A DNA stretch of 49,913 nucleotides from Candidatus Woesearchaeota archaeon (GCA_964503975.1 CAZDCI010000003.1:1-49913); one strand, 5' to 3'. Positions 22,624 to 46,218 are shown, counted from the stretch's first letter. Numbers and translations are program-made. Notes: generated by a model from the sequence alone, not told the origin.

Positions 22624-22824
22624 TTAAGACTTATTTAAATTTTCTTGATTTATATAAAAGATATTACCCCAAACTTCATCTTTCTTATTGTCCCGCAATT
22701 CTTGCATTTTTTCTTTTTGAATTTCTTTAAGAAATTCATCACTATTAGTTTTATTATCTGTAATCTTATCTAAATTAAAAACCTTTTTAGAAGTAGCTTC
22801 CTGTTTGTTGTTTTCTTTCATCAA
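22624..22824 (-). CDS. Small hypothetical protein, possibly an antitoxin remnant
   Basis: 66 aa with NKKDEVW; overlaps the end of the upstream gene. Confidence 0.35.
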   Translation of the reverse strand: MMKENNKQEATSKKVFNLDKITDNKTNSDEFLKEIQKEKMQELRDNKKDEVWGNIFYINQENLNKS

Positions 22825-23875
22825 GTTTACGTTTTATGTAAATTATAATTATGATTATCAAGATTATTAAAATCAATATAATCAAGAATAGAACCAAACG
22901 TCCAAATATGCTTGTTGGTATTCTTTCCACAACCTCAAAATACGCGCTTGAAGGTGCAACCCCGTTAGGATAGATAAGCTCAAGTCCAATTATGTAATCT
23001 CCTAAAGGAAGCTTTCCTGTGCTAAAATCACGCCTTAAATTTATCTGTTCCGTGACTAAAAGAGTTTCTGACTTAGTTAAGTAATTATTATTCGCATAAT
23101 CTTTTATTACAAAATTAAGAGTTACGTCCAGCCTCGGATCTTCCCCGAAAGGAATCAGTGTTACAAGAGTTTCCAAATCCCCTCCCTGTTCTACCTGATA
23201 GTTTGGATTTAAAACTACAATGTTAGAGTCAAACAACAGCAATTCTGTCTGAACATTTAAAGATACAAGAACCTCATATCCTCCCACAAGTATTTTCCCT
23301 GTAAAAATTCCTGTTTCATTTGTGGCTACAAAAATCACATTAAAAGTTTCTGTTTCCTCCGGTTCAATAGTCAGGTTTGTTTCTCCAAGAATTACTCTGT
23401 TGTCTAAATTTGTTTGGCTTATGAAAATTGTTTGCGTTGTCGTTTCTAAATTTGTAACACTTATTGTTCTCTCGGTGTTTGTGTTCACTGCAAGATTTAT
23501 GTTAAACTCTGTAGGCTCAACCTTTAGGTTTGCAGAAGGGGTTACTGCTCCGCCACCCCCATCACTCGGTTCCGTCGGTTCTTCGGCCTCTTCAATTTGA
23601 CAGGTAGAACTACATCCGTCTCCATCTACAGTATTCCCGTCATCACACTGCTCACCTAAACCAGTATCTACAACTCCGTCCCCACAAATACCTCCAAAGA
23701 AAAATCCTTCAACATACCTGTCCGGATTGAGAATGATGTTTCCTGTTCCTCCTGAGTTTATTGAGATTACATCTGCTGAAATAAAAGATGAAAAAAGGAT
23801 TGTTAATACAACAAAAAATGCTAAAAGGATGTTCAACTTAAACAAACTGCAACAAGTAATCTTCTTTACTTTCAT
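22787..23875 (-). CDS. Membrane-anchored surface protein with a Myxococcus-type Cys-rich repeat (DUF4215-like) and Ig-like domains
   Basis: Signal peptide; CGDGVVD...EQCDDGNTVDGDGCSSTCQIE; C-terminal transmembrane helix followed by KRK. Confidence 0.85.
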   Translation of the reverse strand: MKVKKITCCSLFKLNILLAFFVVLTILFSSFISADVISINSGGTGNIILNPDRYVEGFFFGGICGDGVVDTGLGEQCDDGNTVDGDGCSSTCQIEEAEEPTEPSDGGGGAVTPSANLKVEPTEFNINLAVNTNTERTISVTNLETTTQTIFISQTNLDNRVILGETNLTIEPEETETFNVIFVATNETGIFTGKILVGGYEVLVSLNVQTELLLFDSNIVVLNPNYQVEQGGDLETLVTLIPFGEDPRLDVTLNFVIKDYANNNYLTKSETLLVTEQINLRRDFSTGKLPLGDYIIGLELIYPNGVAPSSAYFEVVERIPTSIFGRLVLFLIILILIILIIIIIIYIKRKLDERKQQTGSYF

Positions 23876-23892
23876 CAAACAATAAAAGAAAA

Positions 23893-23920
23893 TTCGTTAA
23901 TAAATTTAATTATGATGAAA
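23893..23920 (+). repeat. dif-like site 1
   Basis: TTCGTTAATAA-ATTTAA-TTATGATGAAA. Confidence 0.65.
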
Positions 23921-23953
23921 CATTTTACCTTAAAGATTGGTAAAGAGTAAAGA

Positions 23954-24196
23954 ATGAAAAATAGTAAGATTTTAAAAGAAGAAAAGCCTTTTGAGAATAA
24001 GAAAAAAGAGATTGAGATGGTTAAAAGGAAAAATGGGGGGTTAAAACTCCTTAAAATCGGCGGAGGTGTTTTATTGGTTTTAGGAGGTATTTCTGGTTTT
24101 TCTTCTTATTTAATACAATCAAATTTTTTGGGAGTTTTGATTTCTGCTATTGCATTTTTCTTCGGTTTATGGTTAATTGGACAGACTATTGAATAA
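23954..24196 (+). CDS. Small two-TM membrane protein
   Basis: Two hydrophobic segments. Confidence 0.6.
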   Translation: MKNSKILKEEKPFENKKKEIEMVKRKNGGLKLLKIGGGVLLVLGGISGFSSYLIQSNFLGVLISAIAFFFGLWLIGQTIE

Positions 24197-24197
24197 A

Positions 24198-24467
24198 ATG
24201 AAAGATATAATAAAGAAGAATAAACTGGATTTAACTTATAATAAATATTCTCAGTTTTTTAATACAACAATAATAATTTTCTCTACTATTACAATAGGAA
24301 TTTTAATTGCCCTTTTAACTGAACAGATTAAAATAGGTAAAAATATACCTTTTATTTTTATTGCCCTTCTTTTTATAACCATTCTTATTTTCTCCATCTA
24401 TTCTCTAATAAAATTTCATAACGAAATGGAGAGAATAATAAAAAAAATAGATAAGTTAAAGGTCTAA
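24198..24467 (+). CDS. Small two-TM membrane protein
   Basis: Likely start ATG 24198 (MKDIIKKNKLDL), just after the upstream stop; two hydrophobic segments. Confidence 0.6.
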   Translation: MKDIIKKNKLDLTYNKYSQFFNTTIIIFSTITIGILIALLTEQIKIGKNIPFIFIALLFITILIFSIYSLIKFHNEMERIIKKIDKLKV

Positions 24468-24531
24468 AGTTATTTATTACTCATCTTAATCAAATCCGGC
24501 CACTTATTTCCATTTAATCTAATATTTGTTG

Positions 24532-24921
24532 TTAATTCGGATGGTGCTCTCTCTGATTTCTTACGTAATCTCTCATATCATCGATTTGCACAAATCCTAC
24601 TGAAGTCCAGAATTTTCCTCGACTCCAAAGATGTCCTTTCGGATATCTCAGTCTTGCTTTTGGATGATATCTGAAAAACAAGTATGCAAATCTTCCTTTT
24701 AGAAGTTGCATTGCCTTGCTTGGACTCATTGTTCCTGGCAATCCAGCGACAACATGTACATGGTCAGGCATCACTTCAATCTCCAAAATTTTTATTTTAT
24801 GTTCTGTTGCAGATTTTCTTATACAAGCTTCTGCAAGATTCTTGTACTTAAACTTGGCAAACATTTTGTAGCGATATTTTGGACACCATTCAAAATGCCA
24901 AATCGAAATTTGTTTTTCCAT
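24532..24921 (-). mobile_element. tnpA: IS200/IS605 family transposase TnpA (no tnpB)
   Basis: WHFEWCPKYR, HUH motif DHVH, LKG, LWSRG, catalytic YVRNQ. Confidence 0.92.
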
Positions 24922-24980
24922 TTTTTCTCCGAAAGATTTAATTAGTTTAGAAAGCTCCGACTATTATTGGAGTTTTCAAG

Positions 24981-25061
24981 GAGCCTAGTATCTAGGCTCT
25001 TATAATCAAGATTTGTAGAAATAAAAATGTGCGGGCTCTCGCTACACATTAAAATGTGTAG
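24981..25061. repeat. Hairpins upstream of tnpA (probable IS200 end)
   Basis: GAGCCTAG-TAT-CTAGGCTC (24981-24999) and CTACACATT-AA-AATGTGTAG (25042-25061). Confidence 0.55.
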
Positions 25062-25111
25062 ATTTCCCACCCGAAGATTAAAAAATAAAAAGCAATCCTT
25101 TAACGCCATTT

Positions 25112-25139
25112 ACAGTTAATAAATTTAATTATGTTAAAG
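25112..25139 (+). repeat. dif-like site 2
   Basis: ACAGTTAATAA-ATTTAA-TTATGTTAAAG. Confidence 0.65.
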
Positions 25140-25150
25140 ATGAATGAAAG

Positions 25151-25771
25151 TTACAGCCTCCTTAATTCCTTTATAAGTTCTTCTTTTTTAAGTTTAAATT
25201 CTCGCAGGGTCAATTTTAAAGAGTTATAATCTTTAAAGTTTCTTACAATAACAATTAAATCTTTAATGTAGTTGCTCAAAGAATTATCTTTTAGAATAGA
25301 AGAATATTTATTAAGATTAATATCTGAAAAAAACAAAATAGAAAGTATGTCAATCAGATCTTTTTCACCTTTTACGGAATTTTTTCTGTCCTTATAGGCT
25401 CCTTGTTTAAGAATCAATAAAGATTCAGGAGACGCTACTTTAAAACCTTCAACTTTTTCTGAATAATTTTTCAATTTTTCCGGAGAAATTGTAAGCTCGG
25501 AAAAGTGTTCAACATAAATATCTATGTCTATCTCTCCTTCTTTAACTTCGTATTTTTTCAGCCTATTGTTTTTAGACATGTTTTCCGATTTCAACTTTTG
25601 CAATTCTTTTATACTTACAACAATATCCACATCTTTAGATTTTTGTTGTTTTGTCCAAAGCCAGATTGCCCACCCGCCTATAAGTATAAAATCGTATTTC
25701 TTTCTAAACTCTTGGAGAATTTTCCAACTTTTTTCAGTCAAATATGAATTCCAAAATTCCTTATTTTTCAT
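25151..25771 (-). CDS. Nucleotidyltransferase-fold toxin (AbiEii-like)
   Basis: LIGGWA, SKDVDI, LLILK, KGEKDLID. Confidence 0.75.
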   Translation of the reverse strand: MKNKEFWNSYLTEKSWKILQEFRKKYDFILIGGWAIWLWTKQQKSKDVDIVVSIKELQKLKSENMSKNNRLKKYEVKEGEIDIDIYVEHFSELTISPEKLKNYSEKVEGFKVASPESLLILKQGAYKDRKNSVKGEKDLIDILSILFFSDINLNKYSSILKDNSLSNYIKDLIVIVRNFKDYNSLKLTLREFKLKKEELIKELRRL

Positions 25772-25781
25772 TTTGATTTTT

Positions 25782-26387
25782 TCATTTTTCTTTTTGTGCG
25801 AGTTTACTTTTCAACGAATCTAAAAAATCTTTAGCGTACCATTCCTTAACATTCCACAAATCAACAAATATTTGAGATAAGGGGGTTTCCTTGTAAAGAT
25901 CAAGTGAAGAATCCTTTTTCAAAACAAAAAAATTAGGATTTTCTGAATTTTCTTTAAAACCAAAATCAGAAATTCTTTTTTTTATTTCTTCAAGTTCTTT
26001 TTCGTCTGCATAAACATAAACCTCAGAATAATCTGCAGGAACATCGTTAAATTTAAACTTGTACGCTGTGTAAACAGTGTAATAAACCTTTGGTAAGACT
26101 CTTTCTATTTCTCTCACACTGGCTTTAACTCTTGCTTTAAAAAAAATATCTTCTTCCAAATTCCTAACCGAAGCCCACAAATAAAGAATTTTATCAGTAT
26201 CTAAAACCTGGAAGCTTCTTTGTTTTATTTTAACTGCGCCCATTGAATCCAATTTTTTCAATACTGAATTTACTATACTTAAAGAAATTTTTAACCTTTT
26301 AGAGAGCTCCGACTGTGTTAAGGCTCTTTCATTCTTTTCAATTACTCTAAAAAGAATTTCTCTGTAAACTTCTTCCTGCCTTTTCAT
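25782..26387 (-). CDS. Winged-HTH antitoxin (AbiEi-like)
   Basis: TQSELSKRLKISLSIVN HTH; C-terminal SQIFVDLWN. Confidence 0.75.
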   Translation of the reverse strand: MKRQEEVYREILFRVIEKNERALTQSELSKRLKISLSIVNSVLKKLDSMGAVKIKQRSFQVLDTDKILYLWASVRNLEEDIFFKARVKASVREIERVLPKVYYTVYTAYKFKFNDVPADYSEVYVYADEKELEEIKKRISDFGFKENSENPNFFVLKKDSSLDLYKETPLSQIFVDLWNVKEWYAKDFLDSLKSKLAQKEK

Positions 26388-26500
26388 TTTATCTTTCTAA
26401 GTAAAGGATAAGTTATTTATAAATCTTTCTTTATTTAGTGAAAGATATATAAATAAAAAAATAAAATAAAGAAACTCGCTAAAATCAAAAAGGAATAAAA

Positions 26501-26528
26501 TTCGTTAATAAATTTAATTGCCTAAGGC
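26501..26528 (+). repeat. dif-like site 3
   Basis: TTCGTTAATAA-ATTTAA-TTGCCTAAGGC. Confidence 0.55.
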
Positions 26529-26529
26529 T

Positions 26530-27123
26530 TCAAATCTTACCATACAGCGTCTTAACTCTTTTTCTAAACTCTAAAGGATATTTCTTAAGATATTTCTCAA
26601 GTTTTTTGACTTCAATCCTATTTTTAAAATTTTTCAAAGCCTCTTCACTTAAATTCTCATTAAAATAAACCATATCAATAAATGTTTTTTCAACACTAGA
26701 GTAGGGAAGAGCGACTCCTTCCTGAAGATGTTCTTCGTACCCAAAAAGATATTTTTTCTTAATTCTTCTTATCAGAATATTTTTTCCCATAACTTTTCTA
26801 ATTCCTTGCCTTACTTTCCTTGACGTCAGTATTACCGGAATTGTTTCCTGCTCCCATAAATCATAAAAACTCATCGCATCCTGTAAACCTAAGTATGCGG
26901 GTTTGAACGCAAAAACAGACAATGAAATATTGTCTCTTGAGGTATAATATCCTTTAGTTAGTCTTTTTATTTTTCCTTTGGACAGCAAGTAACCCAGTAT
27001 TTGTTTTGCGTATTCGCTTGATTTCTTTTTGTTTTTGACAATTCTTTCAACCGAACCGTATTCGACCACGGGGCTTTTTTCAAACAATTTTTTAACCTTT
27101 TCCATATGTTTTTCTTTTCCCAT
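26530..27123 (-). CDS. AbiEi-family antitoxin (type IV toxin-antitoxin)
   Basis: GKIKRLTKGYY, PAYLGLQDAM, SSVEKTFID. Confidence 0.85.
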   Translation of the reverse strand: MGKEKHMEKVKKLFEKSPVVEYGSVERIVKNKKKSSEYAKQILGYLLSKGKIKRLTKGYYTSRDNISLSVFAFKPAYLGLQDAMSFYDLWEQETIPVILTSRKVRQGIRKVMGKNILIRRIKKKYLFGYEEHLQEGVALPYSSVEKTFIDMVYFNENLSEEALKNFKNRIEVKKLEKYLKKYPLEFRKRVKTLYGKI

Positions 27124-27770
27124 TATAATATCCTTTTTATGTAATTTAGCATATCTTCAACTCCCGGAACAATCCCTTCTGTAACTAAAACTTTAAGTTC
27201 TTCCCTGTCCACAGGCTTCTTAAAATTTTTAATGAGTTCATTTAACTCCTTTTTTACATCCCTGACATTTTTAACACATCTCATCAAAAAGAAAACATCA
27301 TATAAATCCCTGATTTTCCTTCTTTTAAGATAAGCTTCCACTTTTTCTTTAACCAGCTCTTCAGGAGTTAAAGTATAAACTGTCAAATAATTTCCTTCAG
27401 CTTTCTCATACTCTTTCAAAATTTTTTTCTTGGCGACATTTTTAAACAATGCTTCAAACCCGACTATTTCTCTTTCAAACTTAAGAGTAGAATAAAGGCT
27501 GTTTTTTCCTATTTTCTTTTTTTCAACAGAAAATCCTTTTTTTGAAGCCTCTTCAAAAAATTTATTTATTTTTTCTGTGTTTTTTTCTATATAAAAATCC
27601 AAATCCTCCGAGAATCTTTTTCCATCGTAGCATCGCCATATGGCCGTTCCCCCGTGAAGCACAGCATTACTAAAAACACCATAAAGCGTTTCAACTAAAA
27701 CATCCTGCGCTTTCGCTACATCCTTATGAGTTTTCTTTTTCAATCTCAAAATTAAAGGTATTTCAGCCAT
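27123..27770 (-). CDS. AbiEii-family nucleotidyltransferase toxin
   Basis: HGGTAIWR, RFSEDLDF, EKVEA, RDLYD. Confidence 0.9.
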   Translation of the reverse strand: MAEIPLILRLKKKTHKDVAKAQDVLVETLYGVFSNAVLHGGTAIWRCYDGKRFSEDLDFYIEKNTEKINKFFEEASKKGFSVEKKKIGKNSLYSTLKFEREIVGFEALFKNVAKKKILKEYEKAEGNYLTVYTLTPEELVKEKVEAYLKRRKIRDLYDVFFLMRCVKNVRDVKKELNELIKNFKKPVDREELKVLVTEGIVPGVEDMLNYIKRIL

Positions 27771-27788
27771 ATTTTCACAATCAACTAA

Positions 27789-27808
27789 AGTTATATATAT
27801 GTATAACT
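27789..27808. promoter_or_regulatory. Inverted repeat operator of the AbiE operon
   Basis: AGTTATA-TATATG-TATAACT between the TATA box and the start codon. Confidence 0.45.
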
Positions 27809-27852
27809 ATGGTTTACTTTATAAATCTTAAGGTTCAGAGAGAAAATTAAAT

Positions 27853-27880
27853 TTCGTTAATAAATTTAATTATGTTAAAA
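27853..27880 (+). repeat. dif-like site 4 (most canonical)
   Basis: TTCGTTAATAA-ATTTAA-TTATGTTAAAA; right arm matches the E. coli XerD arm TTATGTTAAAT at 10/11. Confidence 0.7.
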
Positions 27881-28135
27881 AACAAAAAGTAAATCTAAAT
27901 TTACATGTTTAACAAAGAACCATCCCCATCATGCTTCCATGAGGGAGGAACTAAATGCTATCTTTTTCTAGAAGTTGTTAATAAATTAGAATCATTTGAA
28001 GAAACTTCAAATCCGGGCATATGGGCCGATTGCGGTCTTTGCATCGTTTTTCTCAGAATTAGGTTTCCAAGACACCATCACCTATAAAAACATATTTTTC
28101 CCAATTTTTAAAGAGTTATAATCTATCCACTCATC

Positions 28136-28225
28136 CATCCACTCATAAAGTTATAAAGAATCAAATTGCCTTCAATGACATCCTTGAGTTGTCGTTGAAG
28201 AGTCGCAGTTTGCAACTGAACACGT
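28136..28225 (-). repeat. Orphan 3' end and trailer of the pilin-like gene 36668-38149 (distal copy)
   Basis: 28136-28204 matches 36632-36700 with 1 mismatch; encodes TCSVANCDSSTTTQGCH* versus QCEVPDCDSSTTTQGCH*. Confidence 0.92.
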
Positions 28226-28407
28226 GAAAGATTCATTCTGAATATTCTTCAGAGAATCTTTTCTTTATAGAATCACGAATTTTCCTTGCGGTGGTTTCAT
28301 CATCCACCTCAATATCAATGGAATATTAATCCAAAGTTTATGGTTTAGAATTTACATATAGCCGATGAGATAGAAAATTATTTAAATAGTAATTACATAG
28401 TAATTAC

Positions 28408-28821
28408 GTGGAAAAACAAAGGGTTGGTTTTGGAAATTCTGTCGTTAAACAAGGGAATTCTCTAACTGTGAGGATTCCTAAAATGGCCAGTAATGCACTG
28501 AATTTAAAGGAAGGTGACAAAATAAAAGTCGTGATTTCAAGACCAAAGGGATACTTTTTTTCTGACAGGCAGATAAAAAAAATAATTAAAGAGTGTATGA
28601 AAACTAAAAAATTGAAAAGTTTTGGTGAGGAAAAAATAGGCGTGTTTATATCTCTTATGAATTTAATAATAAACAATAGAGTTACAGAAAATATAAAAGA
28701 AAAAGGGCAAGAAAAAAGACTTACTAAACAGTTCGGGAAAAAGTTTGTGAAAGAATACAAAGATTTCATAAAAACCCTTGAAAAATACCCAAAAATAACT
28801 TCACTATTCAAAAACCCCTAA
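28408..28821 (+). CDS. AbrB/MazE/SpoVT-domain DNA-binding protein
   Basis: VVKQGNSLTVRIPK..ALNLKEGD. Confidence 0.8.
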   Translation: MEKQRVGFGNSVVKQGNSLTVRIPKMASNALNLKEGDKIKVVISRPKGYFFSDRQIKKIIKECMKTKKLKSFGEEKIGVFISLMNLIINNRVTENIKEKGQEKRLTKQFGKKFVKEYKDFIKTLEKYPKITSLFKNP

Positions 28822-30264
28822 AGGAGACAAATTATCAAAGGAGGAAGGGTTTGCCTCTAAAATAGATACATATGTTTTTAGGTCTTCTTCAATTTCCAAT
28901 CTTTTTTTAGAGCAATGTTTTCTTTTTCTTTCTATAGAAATACTGCCCCCTTTTTTAGCGTTATTCAGGCATAAATTACAAAAGCGCGAAGCCCAGCAAG
29001 ATAAGCAATCATTACTGCTTACAGAAAAATATTCATTAATTATTCCAATAACTTTCTCCTCGTCCAATCCCTTATTCACATCTCCAATCTCAAAAAATTC
29101 TCCCACTTTTTCACACGGATAAAATTTTCCTTCGCCAGAAACAAAAATTCTCTTTAACCCAGGAACACACATTCCGTTGGGCTTTATTCTCGGCGTATTG
29201 CCAAGAGGCCTAAAGTGAATGTTTTTTATCCTTTTCCTGAAAAGAGAAGATAAAAAACTATCTTCTCTTCCTTCTGATTTTATTCTAATATAATCTTCTC
29301 TAAATTGTGCAAGAGTAAGATTGAATTCGTGGTTTTCTTCTTGACTTACAGGGTGTTTATCAAAAAAGGTTGTGTCAAAAGGATCTATATTGCTGAAAAA
29401 ACAAAGATGACCCTTCACCAACTCATCCTCAGAAAAAAACTTTCTGATCTTCTTTAAGTCGCTATGAGGAGAAACAGTGATGGAAAAATTTACATGCCTA
29501 TCATAATAGTTAGGGTCAAAATTCTTTAATCTTCTAAGGGTTCTGTAAACCCTCTTGAAACTGGGATTTTTTCCTACATCTAACCTGTACAAATCATGGA
29601 TATCTTCAGGCCCATCTAAACTAACAGTCAAGATGACGTTGTTAGAAACAAGAAATTCTACGTCCTCTTCATCTATTAAAGTACCGTTTGTAGTTATCGC
29701 CCAAACCCTTTCACGACCCTCAAATTTTTCCATGGAATATGTTATTACTCTCTTAATTAAATCAAACTCTAAAAAAGGCTCTCCACCATAAAACCCTATA
29801 TAAATAGTTGGAGATTCCTTAGATACAGAACCAAAAAAATCTATGGCTTTTCTAACAATTCCCATGTCTATTGAATTATTTGAATGTGTCCTACGATATT
29901 TGTAAGATCCGGAATATGCGCAATACTCACACCTTAAATTGCATTTTTCAGTTAAATTAAAAACCATTTCTTGAATACCGTTCCTTAACCTATGTCTTAT
30001 TTCATCTTCTTCAATCGGAAAACCCATTTCATTAAAGCGATATGTTGAGAAGATTCCTTTTTCAGTCAATCTAGATAAAGACGACACTCTTTTCGCTACT
30101 TGATCTGTACTTAGTTCATCTACACCTATTTCCTTTTTTATAAGAGCATAAGTCAAAGGATCTGTCTTAATAATTTCATTGCTTGACGCATCATAAATAT
30201 AGTGCCCTTTTAAGGTTTCAAAGGAAAGAATCAAGGGATTTTTCACTATTCTTTCTAAATTCAT
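28804..30264 (-). CDS. Radical SAM/SPASM peptide maturase (CcpM-like)
   Basis: CNLRCEYC, FYGGEP, TTNGTL, SLDGP, SPASM CVPG...YPCEK...CLSCWASRFCNLC. Confidence 0.9.
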   Translation of the reverse strand: MNLERIVKNPLILSFETLKGHYIYDASSNEIIKTDPLTYALIKKEIGVDELSTDQVAKRVSSLSRLTEKGIFSTYRFNEMGFPIEEDEIRHRLRNGIQEMVFNLTEKCNLRCEYCAYSGSYKYRRTHSNNSIDMGIVRKAIDFFGSVSKESPTIYIGFYGGEPFLEFDLIKRVITYSMEKFEGRERVWAITTNGTLIDEEDVEFLVSNNVILTVSLDGPEDIHDLYRLDVGKNPSFKRVYRTLRRLKNFDPNYYDRHVNFSITVSPHSDLKKIRKFFSEDELVKGHLCFFSNIDPFDTTFFDKHPVSQEENHEFNLTLAQFREDYIRIKSEGREDSFLSSLFRKRIKNIHFRPLGNTPRIKPNGMCVPGLKRIFVSGEGKFYPCEKVGEFFEIGDVNKGLDEEKVIGIINEYFSVSSNDCLSCWASRFCNLCLNNAKKGGSISIERKRKHCSKKRLEIEEDLKTYVSILEANPSSFDNLSPLGVFE

Positions 30265-30271
30265 TTTAAGA

Positions 30272-30475
30272 TTAATCTACAATATATGCAACAGATGCCA
30301 TAACTATGGAGGCCGCAGAAAGGACTAATTTATCACACCCACAATCACATATGCAAAATCCTACTGAATCATAAGAAAAGGTATTTTCATAAGCTCCCCT
30401 AAAACAAGGTTCAAGAACGGGCTCTTCACCTGTCAGAAGACCCTCATCCTTTAGCGAATCTTCTATATTTTTCAT
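30272..30475 (-). CDS. Cys-rich RiPP precursor peptide
   Basis: Acidic leader then CICDCGC; 7 nt upstream of the radical SAM gene on the same strand. Confidence 0.75.
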   Translation of the reverse strand: MKNIEDSLKDEGLLTGEEPVLEPCFRGAYENTFSYDSVGFCICDCGCDKLVLSAASIVMASVAYIVD

Positions 30476-30504
30476 TCATTTTTTCAAATTAAAATATATA
30501 TTTA

Positions 30505-30594
30505 AACTTTATTATAACCCATCCACTCATAAAGTTATAAAGAATCAAATTGCCTTCAATGACATCCTTGAGTTGTCGTTGAAGAGTCACAATC
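30505..30594 (-). repeat. Orphan 3' end and trailer of the pilin-like gene 36668-38149 (proximal copy)
   Basis: 90 bp matching 36617-36706 with 3 mismatches; encodes DCDSSTTTQGCH*. Confidence 0.92.
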
Positions 30595-30724
30595 AAACAG
30601 AAAAGTTAAGTCTGGAATGGGAGCACCACAACCAGTATCTATTTGCAATATTTCTTTAGGAGTTAATAACTATTAAATAGTAACAATAGAAAGATATTTA
30701 TATTATAAATTCAAAAGATAACAT

Positions 30725-31588
30725 ATGGGACAAATATTGTTCTCAACAGCAGGAGTAAACGGAAAAATTGAATCGGATAAATATACTATTCAGAAAATTT
30801 TAGAGGATAGGTTTACAAGTCACTATCTTCCGGATTTCCGAATATTAAATAAAACCCCATCAAGAATACATTTTGAAGTATTACAAAGAGGAATGGTAAA
30901 AAAGGCGGAGATAGAATATCCTATTGCACACCTTAATCTTGCAGTAGAGCACCGTTCTTATGTTGTCACTGCAGAATATCTCGCGGAAAGAGCACGCCAG
31001 GAAGAACTGGGTGTTTTCGCATTTAATTCTGCGTCAGCTGAAAAAAATGGGCGTGGAATTATATTTTACGGACATGCATCAAACTTGGGTAAAAGCACCT
31101 TTGCTAATACATTGTTTGAAAATTGTCAATTTAATCTTTTTTCTGATGAAAAAACATTGATAGATTTAGAAAATAGATTGATGGTTTCTGGATCAAGAAG
31201 CATTCCCTTAAGAAAAGAGATTTGGAAAAAAAGATATCCATTAGAAGAAGATTATAGGGAGATTGAGGTAGATGAAGATAAAACCGCAGAGGTAGAAATG
31301 ATGATAACTCCTCATTATGATCATGGTCTTAACAGGCCAATCGTAATGAAACTAGATAAATTAGACTTTTTCTGGAATTTGGCTGGAGCGATAACTAGAA
31401 GGATTAGGGGGGCAACAAGATTTATAGATAACTTTACCTATCAATTGCCCTCATTGGACACAGAAGAATTGACAGAAGAACGTTTAAGACTTTTGAATGA
31501 TTTTTCTGATAAAGTGAGGGGTTATTATTTTCAGGGAAATTCTGGTCAATTAATAGATTTTATAAATGGGGAATTTGAATCAAAATGA
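30725..31588 (+). CDS. HPr kinase-like P-loop protein
   Basis: NSASAEKNGRGIIFYG..NLGKST, FSDEKTLI. Confidence 0.65.
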   Translation: MGQILFSTAGVNGKIESDKYTIQKILEDRFTSHYLPDFRILNKTPSRIHFEVLQRGMVKKAEIEYPIAHLNLAVEHRSYVVTAEYLAERARQEELGVFAFNSASAEKNGRGIIFYGHASNLGKSTFANTLFENCQFNLFSDEKTLIDLENRLMVSGSRSIPLRKEIWKKRYPLEEDYREIEVDEDKTAEVEMMITPHYDHGLNRPIVMKLDKLDFFWNLAGAITRRIRGATRFIDNFTYQLPSLDTEELTEERLRLLNDFSDKVRGYYFQGNSGQLIDFINGEFESK

Positions 31589-32694
31589 AAATACTAATTT
31601 GTATGAGGTATGCTAATCATGACTCTGGCGGGGCAGAGAAATCAATGCTTACTTTATCAAAGATGTTAAAGGAAGACGGTCACGAAATAAAAATAATATC
31701 ATTAGGATATAAAAACAAAAAAACAACTTACGAAAACATGCCTTTAAGGGAAATAAAATTTAGACCATACATAATAAATGAGATAATATCGATTAAGGAA
31801 ATAGAGAAATTCGTAAAAATAACTGCCTTAAATCTTGGGATTGAGAATGAGATAAAAGAATTTTCTCCGGATATTATTTTTACTCAGCATGAGATTTCTT
31901 TTTTTATTATGAATCTCAAAATTCAGAAAAAAATAAAATGTCCATACTATCTATTTATACACGGATTTGAATATATGCGCCCGACACAAAGAGTTCATTA
32001 TTGGGAGCAGAATACTAAAAACAAAATCTCAAGGGAGATTCTTGGAGAGGCTACTGAAAATTTATTAAAAAAATTAATTAAAAACTCTCAAGGAGTATTT
32101 TTTCCTAGCAGATACTTGATGAATCTATATCAGCACTTAAAAGCGAATTCTTCTTACTATATGATTCACCCCTTTATAAAAATTGATAATTTTTTAATTC
32201 CAACAAATAAGAAAAAAAGAAAATTTATTTTACACATAAATCCTTCGATAAATAAAGGTATTGAGATTACGTTAGATATTGCAAGAAAACTAAGGAAGGA
32301 AAAGTTCCTTATTGTAGGAAATAAACCCAACCAGAAGGTACTTAATGAAATAAATAAATTAAATAATGTGTATTACAAAAAATATCAAAGAGATATTAGA
32401 AAAACATACAGAATTGCTAAGGTACTAATTATTCCTTCAATTCAGCCAGAAACATACAGTTTGACATCAATTGAAGCTCAAGTAAATGGATGCAATTTAG
32501 TTGCTTCAAAAAACGGCGGGATAAATGCTCCAAATGAATCTTTCGTAAAAAATATTAGGAATATTGATGAATGGATAAAGGTAATTAAAATAGGCGGGGC
32601 AAAATTGAAAACAAGTGAATTAAAGAAATTTGATGCGAGAAATCAACTCAAAAAATTAAATAAAATTGTGGACTTAAAAAATGAAGAAATTTGA
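31585..32694 (+). CDS. Glycosyltransferase family 4
   Basis: GGAEKS, PS.YL, KG, PSIQPETYSLTSIEA. Confidence 0.88.
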   Translation: MKILICMRYANHDSGGAEKSMLTLSKMLKEDGHEIKIISLGYKNKKTTYENMPLREIKFRPYIINEIISIKEIEKFVKITALNLGIENEIKEFSPDIIFTQHEISFFIMNLKIQKKIKCPYYLFIHGFEYMRPTQRVHYWEQNTKNKISREILGEATENLLKKLIKNSQGVFFPSRYLMNLYQHLKANSSYYMIHPFIKIDNFLIPTNKKKRKFILHINPSINKGIEITLDIARKLRKEKFLIVGNKPNQKVLNEINKLNNVYYKKYQRDIRKTYRIAKVLIIPSIQPETYSLTSIEAQVNGCNLVASKNGGINAPNESFVKNIRNIDEWIKVIKIGGAKLKTSELKKFDARNQLKKLNKIVDLKNEEI

Positions 32695-33187
32695 AAGAAA
32701 CTATCAAGGGAGAAAAATAAAAATGGAATTGCTTACAATTGAGGAATTGAATGATATCAATAAGATTTTTCCAATCACTCAAATATCTGGATTATGTTTT
32801 GATGAAAAAGGGAATTTATTGGTTATTAGTGGCAAGCCTGGAAAGTGGGGTCTTCCAGGAGGAAAACCTGAAAAGAATGAGGCGCCTGAAGAAACTCTGA
32901 AAAGAGAAGTCAAGGAAGAAGCGAATGTGAATTTGAAGAAGATTTTACCTTTGGCATTTGTAAGAGTTACATTCACAAATAATCCAAATAAATTTGAGGG
33001 GGATATTTTTTATCAAGGAAGGTATCTAGCACTAATTGATTCAGTAGAACCACTTGAAAAAGATCCTGCAACTGGAATTAAATTTAATAGAAAATTTATT
33101 GCGCCAAAGGAATTTCCTAGATATATTAGGTGGCCAGATGCTTCCGAGATTATTTCTCTAGCACTTGAAAAATTAAGAGCATTATAA
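32681..33187 (+). CDS. NUDIX hydrolase
   Basis: WGLPGGKPEKNE..EETLKREVKEEA. Confidence 0.9.
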   Translation: MKKFERNYQGRKIKMELLTIEELNDINKIFPITQISGLCFDEKGNLLVISGKPGKWGLPGGKPEKNEAPEETLKREVKEEANVNLKKILPLAFVRVTFTNNPNKFEGDIFYQGRYLALIDSVEPLEKDPATGIKFNRKFIAPKEFPRYIRWPDASEIISLALEKLRAL

Positions 33188-34179
33188 TGAAAGATATTTT
33201 TATTGCGATACCTGCCAAAAATGAAGAAAGTGAATTAGGTAAATGCATTAGATCAATTTATTACTCCTCAAAATGTCTTCAAAATAAATATAAAATAAAT
33301 ACCTTTATCTGTTTAAATGGGTGCTCTGATAACACAGGAGATGTGGCAGACGAATGTAAAAATAAATTTCAAAATTTGAATATTGAGATCTTAAAAAGTA
33401 AAGAAGGTAAACTATATGCCCAAAAAAATATTATAGAGAGGATAAAAGGAAAGAAGGGATACATATTTTTCATAGATGCAGATACAACAATAAGCAAAAA
33501 CTCACTATCAATAATAATCAACGAATTGAATAAACATAAACAGCTTATAGCTGTCGGAGGTTTTCCTATAGCTAGAAAGTATAAGGGGTTAAACCCGTGG
33601 AAAATTGTTCTAGACAGGATACTAAATGTAAGGTCAAGACATCCAATGGCTGAAAAGTCACAATTAGATGTTGAAGAATACCATAAACTTGCCCTAAAAG
33701 ATCCTCAATTTAAAAATACTTCTCAAAAACATGAATTAAAGTCAAAAATATTTTTCCATGGAAGGCTTTTTGCTCTAAGGTCTACGAAATATTGGAAAAT
33801 GCCTGGTTTAAGAAGAGGGGTTGTGGGAGATGATTCATTTCTGCCAGACCACATTATCTATAACTTTGGGAAAAATAGGATACGGATTAGATATGATGCT
33901 GTAGTTTACTACAATCCCTTTACTTCTTTATTTAAACATTATAAAACTTACAAAAGAATATACTTTGACTTAAAAAATTTAAAGAAAAATTATCCTAAAT
34001 TTAAGGGAATAAGAGAACATTCTGTTTTGGTATTAGACTCAGAATATATTCAATCTCAGAGTTTTACAACAAGATTGAAATTTAATGCTTTTAAAATTAT
34101 ACGTAAATGTGAAAAATTTATTTTTGAGTTATATCCTGAGAATAAGCCCTCAAAAATCTGGAAATCACTTAAGAGATAA
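33187..34179 (+). CDS. Glycosyltransferase family 2
   Basis: IPAKNEE, NGCSDNT, GK, FIDAD, HGRLFALR, DD. Confidence 0.88.
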   Translation: MKDIFIAIPAKNEESELGKCIRSIYYSSKCLQNKYKINTFICLNGCSDNTGDVADECKNKFQNLNIEILKSKEGKLYAQKNIIERIKGKKGYIFFIDADTTISKNSLSIIINELNKHKQLIAVGGFPIARKYKGLNPWKIVLDRILNVRSRHPMAEKSQLDVEEYHKLALKDPQFKNTSQKHELKSKIFFHGRLFALRSTKYWKMPGLRRGVVGDDSFLPDHIIYNFGKNRIRIRYDAVVYYNPFTSLFKHYKTYKRIYFDLKNLKKNYPKFKGIREHSVLVLDSEYIQSQSFTTRLKFNAFKIIRKCEKFIFELYPENKPSKIWKSLKR

Positions 34180-35274
34180 ATAAAGAGAATATATCTTTTT
34201 TGCTTGCCTTTTCCAAGAAAACATTCTTACATCACCAGCCATCTTTTTAACAATTTTGCCTCTGAGAACATCGTTTTTCAGCAACAATTTTATCTTTGAA
34301 GAAAGATCTTGGTAGTTCCTCGCTTTAAAAATTACACCATTTTTATTATTCTTAATAATCTCAACATTACTACAAGCATCGGAAGATATAATTGCAGTCT
34401 TTAATACAGCAGATTCTAAAAGAGTGGTTAAAACACCCTCTCTGCGATATGATGCAAAAACAGCAATTTTTGATCTTGAAACATAATTGAACAAATTTTT
34501 GTCTTTTAATTTACCTAAAAACTCTACACTATCACTCAAATTCAATTTATTTGATAGGTTAATTAATCTTTCTTTTTCCGGACCATCTCCAATTATCTTG
34601 CAGTTAAATTTGATGTTTTCTTTTTTGAGAATAGAAAGGGATTTTATAAGCGATTCTATTCCTTTTATTTTAATTAATCTTCCATAAGATATTATTTCTA
34701 TATTCTTTTTTCTTGTCTTATGCTTGTTTATTTCTTCTAAATTAATCCCGTTATATACTATATGGACTTTTTTATTTGTTTTATGTAATTCCTTCCAACC
34801 TGATGCCACAAATTTTGATACTGCAATTATTTGATCAGGTATTTTTATGGCCCTATTTTCTATTACTCTTTTTTTATCAGGCAATCCATGAAGATGAAGA
34901 TGTATCTTTTTACCATTTGGAGCACCAAGACAATCAACTGCATAGTGATAAGAAATGTTGGTAAAATTAGAGTTCTCATAAAATTTCTTAGAGAGCTTAG
35001 AAAAGATTATTGATTCTTTATCCCAAATTTTTGGGACAGTAGCCTTTCTAAAAAGATCAAATTCCTTATCTAAATCCTTTGATTTCAAGAGAACAACCCT
35101 TTTTCTAAATTTCACGTAAAATTCCTTAAACCATTCACTTTTTCTTGGAGCATCGTATGTTATAAGGTACGTGTCAATACCTAATTTTATTAAATTTCTA
35201 GTTAGGTTTAATGTATATCTTTCTGCACCTCCTGTATAGTAAGAGCTTCTTGGAGAATGAATTGCTAATTTCAT
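34165..35274 (-). CDS. Glycosyltransferase family 4
   Basis: GGAER, AVS, VYNGI, GRL..IKG, IGDGPE, EG..TTLLE; start placed at ATG 35274. Confidence 0.9.
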   Translation of the reverse strand: MKLAIHSPRSSYYTGGAERYTLNLTRNLIKLGIDTYLITYDAPRKSEWFKEFYVKFRKRVVLLKSKDLDKEFDLFRKATVPKIWDKESIIFSKLSKKFYENSNFTNISYHYAVDCLGAPNGKKIHLHLHGLPDKKRVIENRAIKIPDQIIAVSKFVASGWKELHKTNKKVHIVYNGINLEEINKHKTRKKNIEIISYGRLIKIKGIESLIKSLSILKKENIKFNCKIIGDGPEKERLINLSNKLNLSDSVEFLGKLKDKNLFNYVSRSKIAVFASYRREGVLTTLLESAVLKTAIISSDACSNVEIIKNNKNGVIFKARNYQDLSSKIKLLLKNDVLRGKIVKKMAGDVRMFSWKRQAKKIYSLYLSLK

Positions 35275-35324
35275 ATCCTGCAAAAAGGAAAATTGTTTTA
35301 AATACTTATTTGATTATTATTTTC

Positions 35325-36167
35325 ATGGAAAAGGCTAATCTCTTCATCGTAGGTTTTCCAAAAAGTGGCACATCTTCTTTATACTTTTGGTTAAAACAAC
35401 ATCCTAATGTTTTTATGAGCAATAAAAAAGAACCCTCCTTTTTCTCTAAAGATTTTGAGTTAGTCGGTCAAATAAAAAATAGAAATGAATATAACAACCT
35501 TTTTCTTAAAGCATATAAAGAAAAAATAATAGGAGAAGCCTCTACTAGTTATAGCTTTTCAAAAGAGGCACCAATAAAGATTAAGAAGTATAATCCTGAA
35601 GCAAAAATAATCTTTATAATAAGAGACTTTAGTGATATGTTAGAAAGTTTATACATACATAGAGTTCATAGAACAGGAGATCCGATAAGAAATGACTTTA
35701 GAAAGTGGTTTGAAACACGTTTTATAAAAAAAGACGGGAGAATTGGAAAAAACTTTTACCCCTTCTGGAACTTATTGAATCCTTATAAGACGATTTCATT
35801 ATACATAAAATTGTTTGGAAAAAACAATGTCTTCCTATTAGATTTTAGAAAGTTATCTAAAAATCCAGAAGGAGCATTTGTTAAAACATGTAATTTTTTA
35901 AATATAGATTATGTTAACGTAAAGCTTAATATTCAAAATAAAACATTCGGTTCCAAATCAATTTTTATTGAGAAAGTCGGACACTTTATGAGGAGATATT
36001 TATGTGGAGATGATTGGATAAAGTATTTTAGGTTTTGGGAGAAAAATAGAATAATGAAAAAGCCCCGCTACATAAAAAAAAGAGATAGGGAACATATAGA
36101 CAATCTTTTTTTAGAAGATACCAAAAAAATAAAAGCTCTTATGAATAAACTAAATGGAAGGAAGTAA
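35325..36167 (+). CDS. Sulfotransferase (PAPS-dependent)
   Basis: FIVGFPKSGTSSL..WL.QHP, KEPSFF, GEASTSY, AKIIFIIRD; start placed at ATG 35325. Confidence 0.9.
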   Translation: MEKANLFIVGFPKSGTSSLYFWLKQHPNVFMSNKKEPSFFSKDFELVGQIKNRNEYNNLFLKAYKEKIIGEASTSYSFSKEAPIKIKKYNPEAKIIFIIRDFSDMLESLYIHRVHRTGDPIRNDFRKWFETRFIKKDGRIGKNFYPFWNLLNPYKTISLYIKLFGKNNVFLLDFRKLSKNPEGAFVKTCNFLNIDYVNVKLNIQNKTFGSKSIFIEKVGHFMRRYLCGDDWIKYFRFWEKNRIMKKPRYIKKRDREHIDNLFLEDTKKIKALMNKLNGRK

Positions 36168-36172
36168 AAATT

Positions 36173-36607
36173 ATGAAAATAAATAAAAATTATTCGGGAA
36201 TTATAATAGAAAATACAGAAGGTAAACTCCTATTTCAATTAAGAGATAACAATCCAAAAATTCCAAACAGAAATAAATGGAGCCTATTTGGTGGGGGAAT
36301 AGAAAGAGGAGAAACTCCTTTGCAAGCAATAAGAAGGGAAGTTAAAGAAGAATTGGGTATAAGTCTAAACCAACGTGATTTGAGATTACTTTTTAAAAAA
36401 GAATCTCATTCAAGTAATAGATATGTTTTTTATTATAAAATAAAAAAAGATTTGGGGGACATTAAACTTGGTGAAGGAAAAAGTTTTAAATTTATGCGAT
36501 TATCTGATTTGGTGTTTAGAAAAAATGTTGTTAATTCACTAAGAATGTTTATGGTCTTATACCCGTTTTTAAAAAGAAAAATGGTCAAGAAGAAGGAATT
36601 AAATTAA
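36173..36607 (+). CDS. NUDIX hydrolase
   Basis: QLRD, WSLFGGGIERGETP.QA.RREVKEELG. Confidence 0.9.
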   Translation: MKINKNYSGIIIENTEGKLLFQLRDNNPKIPNRNKWSLFGGGIERGETPLQAIRREVKEELGISLNQRDLRLLFKKESHSSNRYVFYYKIKKDLGDIKLGEGKSFKFMRLSDLVFRKNVVNSLRMFMVLYPFLKRKMVKKKELN

Positions 36608-36667
36608 ACCTTGCTCAACTTTATTATAATACATCCACTCATAAAGTTATAAAGAATCAAATTGCCT

Positions 36668-38149
36668 TCAATGACATCCTTGGGTTGTCGTTGAAGAGTC
36701 ACAATCGGGAACTTCACACTGCGTTCCCGTATCCTGACATGTTCCCGGATCTGAAACATATGTATCACTGCTTCCGCATGCAGGAGAGGTTCCAGATGTC
36801 CATCCAACACTCCCCGCACCTCCAACCATGCAAGGAGGATCTACGCTATCACAGAAAGCGCACTCTCCGTTCGTATCAGTATACTGCTTCTCCGCAGCCC
36901 CGCTACAATTGTAGTCCCAGCTCTCCCTGTCAACCTGAACGTTTGTAGTATACCAATTAGGATTTCCAGGATAAACATTTGCATCAATATCATAACAGTC
37001 GTTTGTGTCTAGCGCATCTTTCGCCCTTACCGCATCGGTGCTAGATGTTTTAAGTGTAGCATTCGGAGCATATCCATCCTGATCAACATCCGTGTAGTAT
37101 AACAGGCCTTTTTCAGTTGAGCCACTACTTAACTGTATCTGAGCTCCACTGAATAGAATGCTATATCCGTCATTCCAATACATTGTTGCACCTGGATTTA
37201 TTGTCATAGTCTTACCAGAAGATATATGTATATCTCCTCCATCATTTCCACTGACTGCATCTACAAAAGTGCAATTACCTTCAATAGTCATAGTTCCACC
37301 ATGATTTGCATAAATTTGACAATTTGTAGGATCTGTCCAAGTCAAATTCACAGTATTAACATTTCCCACAGAATCTGTAGCAATAAAAGTAGTATTATAA
37401 CTCGTATAATGCGTGTCATAAACTTCCCAAGAAGCACTCCATGTTTCTACATCATTTTCATCAGTGGAAACATATTCTAAAGGCAAAACCATTAAATCAT
37501 GATCCAATTGGGTTTCTGTTGTCACATTTAAACCTCCATGGGGAGAAGAAACTCTTGCTGTAAAAGTTTGTGTGTCACCTACCATAACATCTAAAGGATC
37601 TATGATGACTTCTTTAAACTCAGGCAAATCTTCGTCTCCTGAAATACTATAGCTTACCTCTCCCATTCCAGAATATCCTAAAGAAACAAATTTGCTTCCT
37701 GCCCCACCTGTACCTGTTATCGGCTCTTTTAATTCAACATCATCAACAACATTTTCCGCTGTTTCCTCCCCGTAAACGGGCGCAACAGAAATTTTATTTA
37801 TATTCTGAATTGTCAGCTCAGCAAGGTAAAATGAAAATATTTTCTCTTCCAAATTTCCAAGAGTCGTATCTCGTTCTAAAATCTGAGAATCTGTCCCGTT
37901 TTCAAAAATAAATTTAATGGAGGTTAAATTCTCATTCCCAGAACCTTTTTTAACAGTCACTAACAAAGAATCTCCTTCAACAACGGCACTTTTAATATCC
38001 ACCTCTTTACTAAAAGAACTTAGAGAAACATCTTTTATTCCTTCTCCAATAACTCCTCTAATCACTCCCCAAATTATTCCTGTAGCAACCAAAACTAAAA
38101 GGATTATAACAAGTGTTGTAACAACTGCTGATAAACCTCTTTTCTGCAT
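36668..38149 (-). CDS. Surface protein with class III (archaeal pilin-like) signal peptide and Cys-rich C-terminal adhesin region
   Basis: MQKRG|LSAVVTTLVIILLV; D.DQDGY...DCYDIDANVYPG metal-binding motif; Cys-rich tail. Confidence 0.85.
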   Translation of the reverse strand: MQKRGLSAVVTTLVIILLVLVATGIIWGVIRGVIGEGIKDVSLSSFSKEVDIKSAVVEGDSLLVTVKKGSGNENLTSIKFIFENGTDSQILERDTTLGNLEEKIFSFYLAELTIQNINKISVAPVYGEETAENVVDDVELKEPITGTGGAGSKFVSLGYSGMGEVSYSISGDEDLPEFKEVIIDPLDVMVGDTQTFTARVSSPHGGLNVTTETQLDHDLMVLPLEYVSTDENDVETWSASWEVYDTHYTSYNTTFIATDSVGNVNTVNLTWTDPTNCQIYANHGGTMTIEGNCTFVDAVSGNDGGDIHISSGKTMTINPGATMYWNDGYSILFSGAQIQLSSGSTEKGLLYYTDVDQDGYAPNATLKTSSTDAVRAKDALDTNDCYDIDANVYPGNPNWYTTNVQVDRESWDYNCSGAAEKQYTDTNGECAFCDSVDPPCMVGGAGSVGWTSGTSPACGSSDTYVSDPGTCQDTGTQCEVPDCDSSTTTQGCH

Positions 38150-43139: not shown

Positions 43140-43736
43140 TTATTCATCCTTTAAATTTTTTCTGAATTTAATAAATTCATCCTGGCCAAAAAGAACAATT
43201 CCTTTTTTTATGGCATCAATAAAAATTTTGTTTCGTTTCTTTAATTCTTTTTCAAATTCTTTTTTTGTAAAATTTTCCGAATGTATTTTTTTGGATTGAA
43301 TTTTTTGTATTTTTTGTAAAGCTTCTTCAATGTTTTGGAAATCGTTTTCACTGGAAACTACTCCTAAAATGTCTATATCACTTGCTTCTCTTGGAGAGTG
43401 AAGTATGCTTCCGTACAATATTAAAAAATCTACAATTTTCCCAACATCTTCAAAATTTTCCATCCATCTTCTGTGTTTCAAAGCTTCTTCCGTTAAAATC
43501 AAAGAAAGTTTTTTTTCTAACAATAAATTCTCCCAGTTTAAATTCACAATAATGCTGTTTGTTTTTCCCTCTCCAATCTGGGAAAGAGAAATTAATTTTT
43601 CACGCTCTAAGTTTTTCAAAGCCTTCCATGTTCCGACTCTGCTTAAATTAATCTCTTTACTTAAAGCAGTGACCGTCCATCTGGATTTAAACTGTTTTAA
43701 TAGGATTTTCAAAATTTTTGTTTTTGTATCAGCCAT
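43140..43736 (-). CDS. wHTH plus minimal nucleotidyltransferase (MNT) protein
   Basis: LSKEINLSRVG HTH; LYGS...SDIDIL; IKKGIVLFG. Confidence 0.85.
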   Translation of the reverse strand: MADTKTKILKILLKQFKSRWTVTALSKEINLSRVGTWKALKNLEREKLISLSQIGEGKTNSIIVNLNWENLLLEKKLSLILTEEALKHRRWMENFEDVGKIVDFLILYGSILHSPREASDIDILGVVSSENDFQNIEEALQKIQKIQSKKIHSENFTKKEFEKELKKRNKIFIDAIKKGIVLFGQDEFIKFRKNLKDE

Positions 43737-45377: not shown

Positions 45378-45468
45378 ATCTTGTATAAGATGAAACTATT
45401 TATAAAAGTTTCCTTTTATAAAAGTCTAAAGTTCTTCAATCTCAACCCTTAAACCTAACCCTCAAAAC

Positions 45469-46179: not shown

Positions 46180-46218
46180 ATTATCCTAAACAGTATAATG
46201 TATTTAAAACTTTCTCCA

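Follow-up and report, generated by a model that had tools for sequence, protein, structure and literature searches.

The stretch of DNA analysed here, called the window throughout, is a complete contig of 49,913 bases (C3) from the genome of a Candidatus Woesearchaeota archaeon, which comprises 658,416 bases in 22 contigs at ~84% completeness. It contains an island of gene cassettes lying between a pilin-like surface gene and a DUF4215-repeat surface gene, in the order pilin-like gene, R1, glycosylation cassette, R2, RiPP (ribosomally synthesised and post-translationally modified peptide) cassette, R3, spacer, P3, AbiE cassette, P2, a cassette with helix-turn-helix (HTH), nucleotidyltransferase (NTase) and IS200 genes, P1, and the DUF4215 gene. 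The R elements are direct repeats of the 3′ end of the pilin-like gene, and the P elements are copies of a short motif native to the upstream side of the DUF4215 gene. We are concerned mainly with R1–R3 and with how the DNA between them came to be there. The features of this part of the island are listed below, with G+C content given as GC, open reading frames as ORFs and the untranslated region as UTR.

36668–38149, minus strand: pilin-like surface gene (the anchor gene), 493 aa, with a class-III-signal-like N-terminus and a Cys-rich C-terminus ending CDSSTTTQGCH and the stop
36617–36706, minus strand: R1, the native gene end (last 12 codons, stop and ~50 nt of 3′ UTR), the gene-proximal copy
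30595–36616, both strands: cassette 1, 6,022 bp, GC 29.5%, seven ORFs, between R2 and R1
30505–30594, minus strand: R2, an orphan copy of 90 nt with 3 mismatches to R1, in which similarity to the gene stops abruptly at GATTGTGAC
28205–30504, both strands: cassette 2, 2,300 bp, GC 32.6%, three ORFs, between R3 and R2
28133–28204, minus strand: R3, the distal orphan, with 70 nt identical to R2

A repeat search returned a direct three-copy family at 28094–28207, 30478–30591 and 36590–36703, and comparison of the genome with itself by BLAST gives the pairwise limits: 30505–30594 matches 36617–36706 over 90 nt (96.7% identity), 28135–28204 matches 30519–30588 over 70 nt (100%), and 28133–28204 matches 36629–36700 over 72 nt (97.2%). 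A core of 51 nt is identical across all three copies; it occurs three times in the window, each time with 0 mismatches even when up to three are allowed, against an expectation of 0.00 (100 shuffles). No fourth copy is present in the whole 658,416-base genome, where all three matches are R1–R3 themselves. The TGA at 36668–36670 within R1 is the stop codon of ORF 36668–38149. The stop-spanning 69-nt repeats described in a first-pass annotation of this DNA (36632–36700, 30520–30588 and 28136–28204) are therefore real, lie inside R1–R3 in direct orientation, and do bound a ~6-kb glycosyltransferase/sulfotransferase/NUDIX cassette and a ~2.3-kb RiPP cassette, which measure 6,022 and 2,300 bp. The genome-wide BLAST also shows that the repeat is anchored to the gene, and a dispersed element resembling a miniature inverted-repeat transposable element (MITE) or a repetitive extragenic palindrome (REP) was rejected, there being just three copies in 658 kb, confined to a single array, and no match to the 26-nt R core in three public collections (metagenome, genome and viral contigs).

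The copies differ from one another at 2–3 positions directly after the sequence ...GGATG. Upstream of R3 the identity to the gene falls from 70/72 to 12/21 in register (binomial p 0.005), such that the final 21 nt of cassette 2 (28205–28225) weakly resemble the gene, and nothing is seen further on (12/30); upstream of R2 only 3 of 21 positions match in register. The first-pass annotation took the distal orphan for a different allele of the gene. The in-register matches lend this weak support, but in an unconstrained local alignment the 126 nt upstream of R3 align to the gene no better than shuffled sequence (295 of 500 shuffles equal the score). On the downstream side the similarity extends weakly beyond R, with the R1/R2 score matched by 2 of 500 shuffles and that of R2/R3 by 10 of 500, and a 12-nt tandem duplication (28123–28146) lies directly beyond R3. 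Neither orphan contains an ORF of its own. The R3 reading frame, which ends in NIQNESFTCSVANCDSSTTTQGCH and the stop, is closed by another stop 30 codons ahead of the terminal one and has no usable start codon; that of R2 is open for ~37 codons, its sole candidate start being a TTG 29 codons before the stop. We dropped the idea that these frames encode small Cys-rich RiPP substrates, given the lack of a start codon in R3 and merely a TTG in R2.

The N-terminus of the anchor protein is MQKRGLSAVVTTLVIILLVLV, in which a class-III-signal-like motif, KRGLSAVVTTLVIILLVLV, is visible and is kept in the orthologues; a [KR]G-LS motif and a hydrophobic N-terminus are common to the protein and its relatives in other species of the genus (congeners). 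The archaellin/pilin N-terminal model TIGR02537 matches with an E value of 0.022 and 14.3 bits, below its cut-off of 20, and no Pfam family matches the protein. The label 'pilin-like' proposed in the first-pass annotation is reasonable on these sequence features, but not proven. Matches were found in all 24 congeners searched, with orthologues 37–47% identical; the first 150 residues are conserved among them, and the C-terminal motif TTTQ-x-CH-stop recurs in the orthologue of congener G009. The closest relative among 5.8 billion proteins is 46% identical, and a search of a public metagenome contig collection gave no relative.

We compared 26 window proteins by tblastn with ten loci from other species of the genus. 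At eight of the ten the pilin-like gene is followed by the DUF4215 gene and then by that of Obg GTPase, and wherever the contig reaches that far a PKD/beta-propeller gene lies upstream; in G007 the pilin and DUF4215 genes are 8.4 kb apart, and G019 has no DUF4215 match. The distance from the pilin stop to the DUF4215 match is 12,789 bp in the window, and at nine congener loci is 114, 200, 787, 814, 1,266, 1,307, 2,221, 2,793 and 8,352 bp; some of these gaps are free of genes, and others contain up to several unrelated ones. At E<1e-5 the ten congener loci gave no match to any of the 17 island proteins queried (23.9–36.7 kb). The island has a GC of 30.2%, compared with 35.2% and 34.2% in its flanks. 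Because the congener gaps are short or variable and lack the island proteins, and because the island is AT-richer with patchily distributed genes, the whole stretch 23,879–36,667 is accessory and lies in a hot spot whose content differs from species to species, the site being a probable insertion hot spot between two syntenic surface-protein genes. No repeated gene end is seen at the orthologous loci of the ten congeners.

The ORFs of the two R-bounded cassettes are as follows.

30725–31588, plus strand: cassette 1, unnamed ORF (ORF call)
31585–32694, plus strand: cassette 1, family 4 glycosyltransferase (GT4; Pfam)
32681–33187, plus strand: cassette 1, first NUDIX protein (Pfam)
33187–34179, plus strand: cassette 1, GT2 (Pfam)
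34165–35283, minus strand: cassette 1, GT1 (Pfam)
35211–36167, plus strand: cassette 1, sulfotransferase (Pfam)
36173–36607, plus strand: cassette 1, second NUDIX protein (Pfam)
30272–30475, minus strand: cassette 2, Cys-rich ORF, 67 aa
28804–30264, minus strand: cassette 2, radical SAM (rSAM)/SPASM peptide maturase (NCBIfam, nearest CcpM)
28408–28821, plus strand: cassette 2, AbrB/MazE-like ORF (Pfam)

The best NCBIfam model for the rSAM maturase is CcpM (E 1.9e-108), yet the match is below the equivalog cut-off. Relatives of this protein are present in four of 41 congeners at 30–34% identity (five of 42 genomes of the genus counting its own), and relatives of the sulfotransferase in three of 200 other genomes of the order (four of 201 counting its own).

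The other half of the island is organised around P, and its features are:

22787–23878, minus strand: DUF4215/Cys-rich acidic repeat surface gene, which in congeners is conserved as the next gene downstream of the pilin-like one
23893–23911, minus strand: P1, the native motif directly upstream of the DUF4215-repeat gene
23912–26500, no strand assigned: cassette 4, GC 28.9%, bounded by P1 and P2 (Pfam)
24177–24467, plus strand: cassette 4, ORF (ORF call)
24532–24921, minus strand: cassette 4, IS200-type Y1 transposase (Pfam)
25151–25771, minus strand: cassette 4, nucleotidyltransferase (Pfam)
25782–26387, minus strand: cassette 4, winged HTH protein (Pfam)
26501–26519, minus strand: P2, second copy of the motif, ahead of the winged HTH/nucleotidyltransferase pair
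26520–27852, minus strand: cassette 3, AbiEii toxin-like gene (27123–27770) and its 197-aa partner (26530–27123) (Pfam)
27853–27871, minus strand: P3, motif copy upstream of the AbiE pair
27881–28132, no strand assigned: spacer between R3 and P3, known by position, containing a 60-aa ORF (27905–28087, plus strand)

The P motif is the 19-mer TTCGTTAATAAATTTAATT, which with up to two substitutions allowed occurs exactly three times in the genome, at 23893, 26501 and 27853, all of them cassette borders of the island. Because the same 17 nt precede the G009 orthologue of the DUF4215 gene, standing between the pilin stop and the DUF4215 start, P is a native promoter-region motif of this gene. In G009 the pilin stop stands 5 nt from the motif, and for this reason the segment R3–spacer–P3 looks like a relic of the ancestral intergenic region. 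The IS200-type element of cassette 4 (24532–25035) has a second copy, 88% identical, at the end of C12 (27773–28322), and its border is matched over 55 nt at the end of C17 (19642–19696).

Six-frame family searches of the genome found no integrase or integrase remnant in the window. PF00589 matched solely on contigs C7 and C12, PF16795 below threshold on C12, and PF00239 weakly on C6; Cas1 is absent from the genome by the same search. RadA and RadB-like genes and two XerA-type tyrosine recombinases are encoded, all outside the window. Both tyrosine recombinases pass the XerA model and score 201 and 220 bits with the integron-integrase model TIGR02249, below its cut-off of 265. The second of them is a 352-aa protein with an N-terminal extension, encoded directly upstream of a FlaJ/UpsF-like pilus assembly gene (C12, ~4534–7009). 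The RadA frame (C11 9955–12165) is 846 aa long and its Rad51 match falls into two separate parts, suggestive of an intein, and the GyrA gene of the window (7901–11554) carries an intein-splicing domain. The only reverse transcriptase signal is a single RVT_1 match in a degenerate frame with five in-frame stops (C18 632–1193), unlinked to the window.

Several known systems were rejected as explanations. A diversity-generating retroelement does not fit, the sole RVT_1 match being the degenerate one on C18 and the mismatches among the R copies (C/T and GT/GG/AG, mostly non-coding) not being adenine-specific; nor does a casposon, with Cas1 absent from the genome. An integron, or a cluster of attC sites lacking integron-integrases (CALIN), was set aside since there is no IntI, R is not an end-to-end palindrome and the cassettes are multi-gene with ORFs on both strands; here the attC character of R was assessed by hairpin and folding, with no dedicated attC model, and amounts to a local 12-bp hairpin with z −0.7 to −1.9. 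Silent cassettes of the pilE/pilS type were rejected because the orphans carry 0 (R2) and ~7 (R3) variant codons.

At about even confidence, we read R1–R3 as scars, resembling attachment (att) sites, of two successive cassette insertions behind the pilin-like gene, at its 3′ end. The DNA that arrived each time, in the simplest case circular, would have brought its own copy of the last 11–12 codons of the gene and ~50 nt of 3′ UTR; recombination inside the shared 70–90-nt stretch would then place the cassette behind the gene and leave the gene end intact, and each insertion would push the older cassette and the older anchor copy away from the gene. The RiPP cassette with R3 would thus be the older and the glycosylation cassette with R2 the younger, and the same process acting at the DUF4215 promoter motif may have added the two toxin-antitoxin cassettes. 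The recombination could be a RadA-dependent single crossover, or the work of a trans-acting recombinase, for which the second XerA-type protein is a candidate. The repeats and their limits, the contents of the cassettes, the DNA in excess of the congeners and the lack of a recombinase gene in the window are observed; that circles were involved, which cassette came first and which enzyme acted is what we infer in this scheme. A single crossover with DNA bearing the end of the gene would produce sharp edges of identity, a preserved gene end and an additive order, and it is because these are what the locus displays that we favour serial insertion; the same three features also mark att-flanked arrays of integrated elements.

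A number of observations weigh against serial insertion. Cassettes 1 and 2 carry no gene for an integrase, for replication or for any other mobility function (Pfam, larger ORFs) and no terminal inverted repeats; more generally, beyond R and P, the cassette ends have no terminal inverted or direct repeats above shuffles. The P repeats comprise merely 19–24 nt of identity, which is short for homologous recombination. The congeners are different species (Obg is 65–68% identical at the protein level), and their short gaps are not empty-site alleles. On the assembly graph, a cassette 2 integrated in the chromosome and one present as a loop or a 2.4-kb circle look alike, because R2 and R3 share more exact bases than the apparent k-mer length (see below). 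The public run data, whose contigs break in the repeats, showed neither a circle nor an empty site nor a strain variant, and the public collections searched yielded no same-species genome. Finally, the complete congener genome G044 (535,452 bases) contains 37 local direct-repeat pairs and no array of the R type.

Among the alternatives, allele replacement would have a pilin allele from another strain arrive together with its 3′ end and a cassette, joined upstream by homologous recombination and downstream illegitimately (homology-facilitated illegitimate recombination), each event leaving in place the terminal codons and 3′ UTR of the allele that it displaced. The in-register matches (12 of 21) that R3 shows past its identical block are what a diverged allele would leave, the gene evolves fast, as its best relative at 46% identity attests, and the conserved 150 N-terminal residues could anchor the recombination. 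It nevertheless requires two independent illegitimate joins within the last 33–100 nt of a 1.5-kb gene and mosaic alleles with an invariant end to account for the step from 100% to ~57% identity; R2 (3/21) lacks an allele-like extension and the promoter-motif repeats are left unexplained, and on balance we think it distinctly unlikely. We give hardly any credence to the proposal that R is a functional duplicate, either a terminator, promoter or RNA module copied with operons or a set of silent pilin 3′ cassettes. An imperfect 12-bp hairpin does span the stop codon in R and is followed by a TTTATAA box, and the Neisseria pilE/pilS loci, with a conserved 3′ repeat downstream, offer a formal parallel. 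However, R folds no better than its shuffles, over the same range of z given above, and has no Rfam family (a lone sub-threshold C/D-box match at 31268–31322, E 0.15, is unrelated to the repeats). The 3′ UTR of the pilin-like gene is not conserved in the ten congeners, the few variant codons of the orphans are too few for a silent-cassette store, and cassette 2 has a TATA-like box of its own, closer to its first ORF.

That part of the array is an effect of assembly, with cassette 2 a separate circle or population variant that shares 70 nt and was threaded into the contig, so that R3 would not be chromosomal, seems to us highly unlikely. At least a dozen contig ends overlap other contig ends by 52–55 nt (genome-versus-itself BLAST), and from this the assembly appears to be a de Bruijn assembly at k=55, of which such overlaps are typical; repeats longer than 55 nt would then be unresolved by the graph. 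R2 and R3 have 70 exact bases in common, which exceeds k; for R1 the longest exact identity with the other copies is 51, and the R1 junctions alone are therefore resolved. The region is present in two public runs, both of one study (shares 0.89 and 0.85), and in none of a third; in the two it is represented by Logan contigs at ~5x each that end inside the repeats, and the five joints listed for these contigs, whose sides are 20–24 nt long and in some cases at foreign depths, do not connect one repeat copy to another. Against an assembly effect, the cassette–R junction sequences must exist in the reads, and some duplication, whether a circle or a second chromosomal copy, is therefore real either way; moreover, cassette 2 lacks a replication gene, and both the 12-nt duplication and the flanking sequences of R3 are peculiar to that copy.

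Two further readings concern what moved the cassettes. In one, a sub-case of serial insertion that we judge unlikely, the cassettes are site-specific integrative elements that lost their integrase, or satellites mobilised by one encoded elsewhere, and R represents attL and attR with a short crossover core. The architecture is identical to that of att-flanked arrays as set out by Krupovic et al. (2019, PMC6563490) and in bioRxiv 10.1101/2020.12.28.424599, and the second XerA-type recombinase adjoins a pilus gene. A site-specific enzyme also fits the 19–24-nt P repeats better, and homologous recombination fits the 70–90-nt R. To be set against such elements are the absence of an integrase or remnant from the window, the absence of R-like sequence near either recombinase gene (genome self-BLAST), and the differences among the R copies right after ...GGATG. 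The other is an integrase-free platform, an idea we entertain only tentatively, in which glycosylation, RiPP and toxin-antitoxin/defence cassettes of these reduced DPANN genomes circulate between strains as non-replicating circles bearing a host landmark, either the final codons and 3′ UTR of a pilin-like gene or the promoter of the adjacent surface gene, and are captured there additively by RadA or a XerA paralogue; the island would in that case grow outwards from the relic at 27881–28132 towards both genes.

Serial insertion at a gene end has precedents. Krupovic et al. (2019, PMC6563490) describe arrays of archaeal mobile elements that arise from re-use of a site, including integration into the 3′-distal part of protein-coding genes; there, as in the window, direct repeats flank the inserts, the gene end including its stop is supplied anew and the arrays are tandem. 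Integrases or casposases, along with other mobile-element genes, are part of those elements but not of cassettes 1 and 2, and the att sites quoted are 29–69 bp in crenarchaea, with one example of 13 bp, compared with 70–90 nt for R. Tycheposons of Prochlorococcus (bioRxiv 10.1101/2020.12.28.424599) resemble the island in that cargo is flanked by partial copies of the target 3′ end, newcomers push older ones inward, and remnants and extra partial copies are scattered; they differ in having a tRNA target and their own tyrosine recombinases, in circles demonstrated by PCR, and in belonging to bacteria rather than DPANN archaea. Archaeal integrons and CALINs (Ghaly et al. 2022, PMC9668308), including those of Nanoarchaeota/DPANN, likewise form integrase-less arrays with proximal insertion, but R is not an attC-type palindrome, there is no IntI, and the present cassettes contain several genes each, in mixed orientation and under promoters of their own.

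Composite islands of the staphylococcal cassette chromosome (SCC) are anchored at the 3′ end of rlmH/orfX and consist of tandem cassettes bounded by direct repeats of that end, and some of their cassettes (pseudo-SCC) have no recombinase genes. In SCC, however, Ccr serine recombinases act on a short core, whereas no serine recombinase is linked to the present locus, the genome giving one weak Resolvase match on another contig. Xer-dependent elements, such as integrative mobile elements exploiting Xer (IMEX) and pdif modules, are recombinase-less modules moved by host enzymes, but no dif-like 28-nt site can be defined in R, a statement to which comparison with known archaeal dif did not contribute. 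In homology-facilitated illegitimate recombination an insertion is similarly anchored by one-sided homology, although illegitimate recombination alone does not duplicate the anchor, in contrast to what is seen here. The architecture is thus already known from integrase-borne elements at the 3′ ends of protein-coding genes, and the integrase-less form is a variant of it; what differs from the known arrays is the lack of a mobility gene in cassettes 1 and 2, the long anchor, and a second landmark, the promoter motif, in the same island. A narrow full-text literature search found no description of such arrays in DPANN archaea.

The first-pass annotation held that the same architecture recurs at a second surface gene and that this reflects a general mechanism. 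The former is supported in part, by the P motif and by a set of boundary duplications near the right end of the window. The final 131 nt and stop of a truncated surface-type gene (49385–49912) recur at 47932–48067 and, beyond a spacer, so do the promoter and initial 22 codons of an AAA_14/DUF4143 ATPase gene, at 47680–47778. The junction copies (47680–48067 and 49250–49515) are 98–99% identical, both lie behind that ATPase gene, and the distal copy is an orphan with a 120-nt insert; this pair is a second boundary duplication in the window, and corresponds to the 'first array' of that annotation. In congener G042 a GC-rich direct repeat of ~55 nt, unrelated to R, occurs three times on contig C79 (1205–1252, 1987–2040 and 4685–4765) and bounds a related rSAM module, and a 95% identical copy lies by the rSAM module of G008 (C26 11335–11389), where the coding DNA is merely 75–79% identical. 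A general mechanism is not established, and the scan of one complete congener (G044) gave no comparable array. Its repeat pairs are intragenic tandem repeats, paralogue families, gene fragments at an 80–94 kb locus and one duplicated 79-aa gene. The 80–94 kb locus contains paralogous minus-strand genes with many segments 90–99% identical and orphan fragments (e.g. 80818–81122), and looks like a family of surface genes undergoing recombination.

DPANN archaea live attached to host cells and have genomes of ~0.5–0.7 Mb, and their strains are expected to differ in surface filaments, glycans and defence genes. The present locus displays at the nucleotide level an accumulation of ~12.8 kb between two conserved surface-protein genes, with borders that are still readable. 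If the cassettes did move without an element-borne integrase, this would be a simple route of gene gain for streamlined genomes, and orphan gene ends and orphan promoters would be a practical marker of flexible islands in metagenome-assembled genomes; should it instead prove to be a loop of the assembly, or an integrase-borne array that has decayed, the locus would be an ordinary genomic island.

Genes of toxin-antitoxin or defence type (ParE, PIN-like DUF5615 and nucleotidyltransferases) abound around the island and in the right third of the window (19406–19678, 43140–43736, 45600–45971 and 44091–49320), and three AAA_14/DUF4143 ATPase paralogues lie in this part of the contig, where the GC is ~30%. 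Elsewhere in the genome there are near-perfect tandem duplications at C2 55753–56651 and C12 13198–14302 (~440 and 540 nt, 99% identity).

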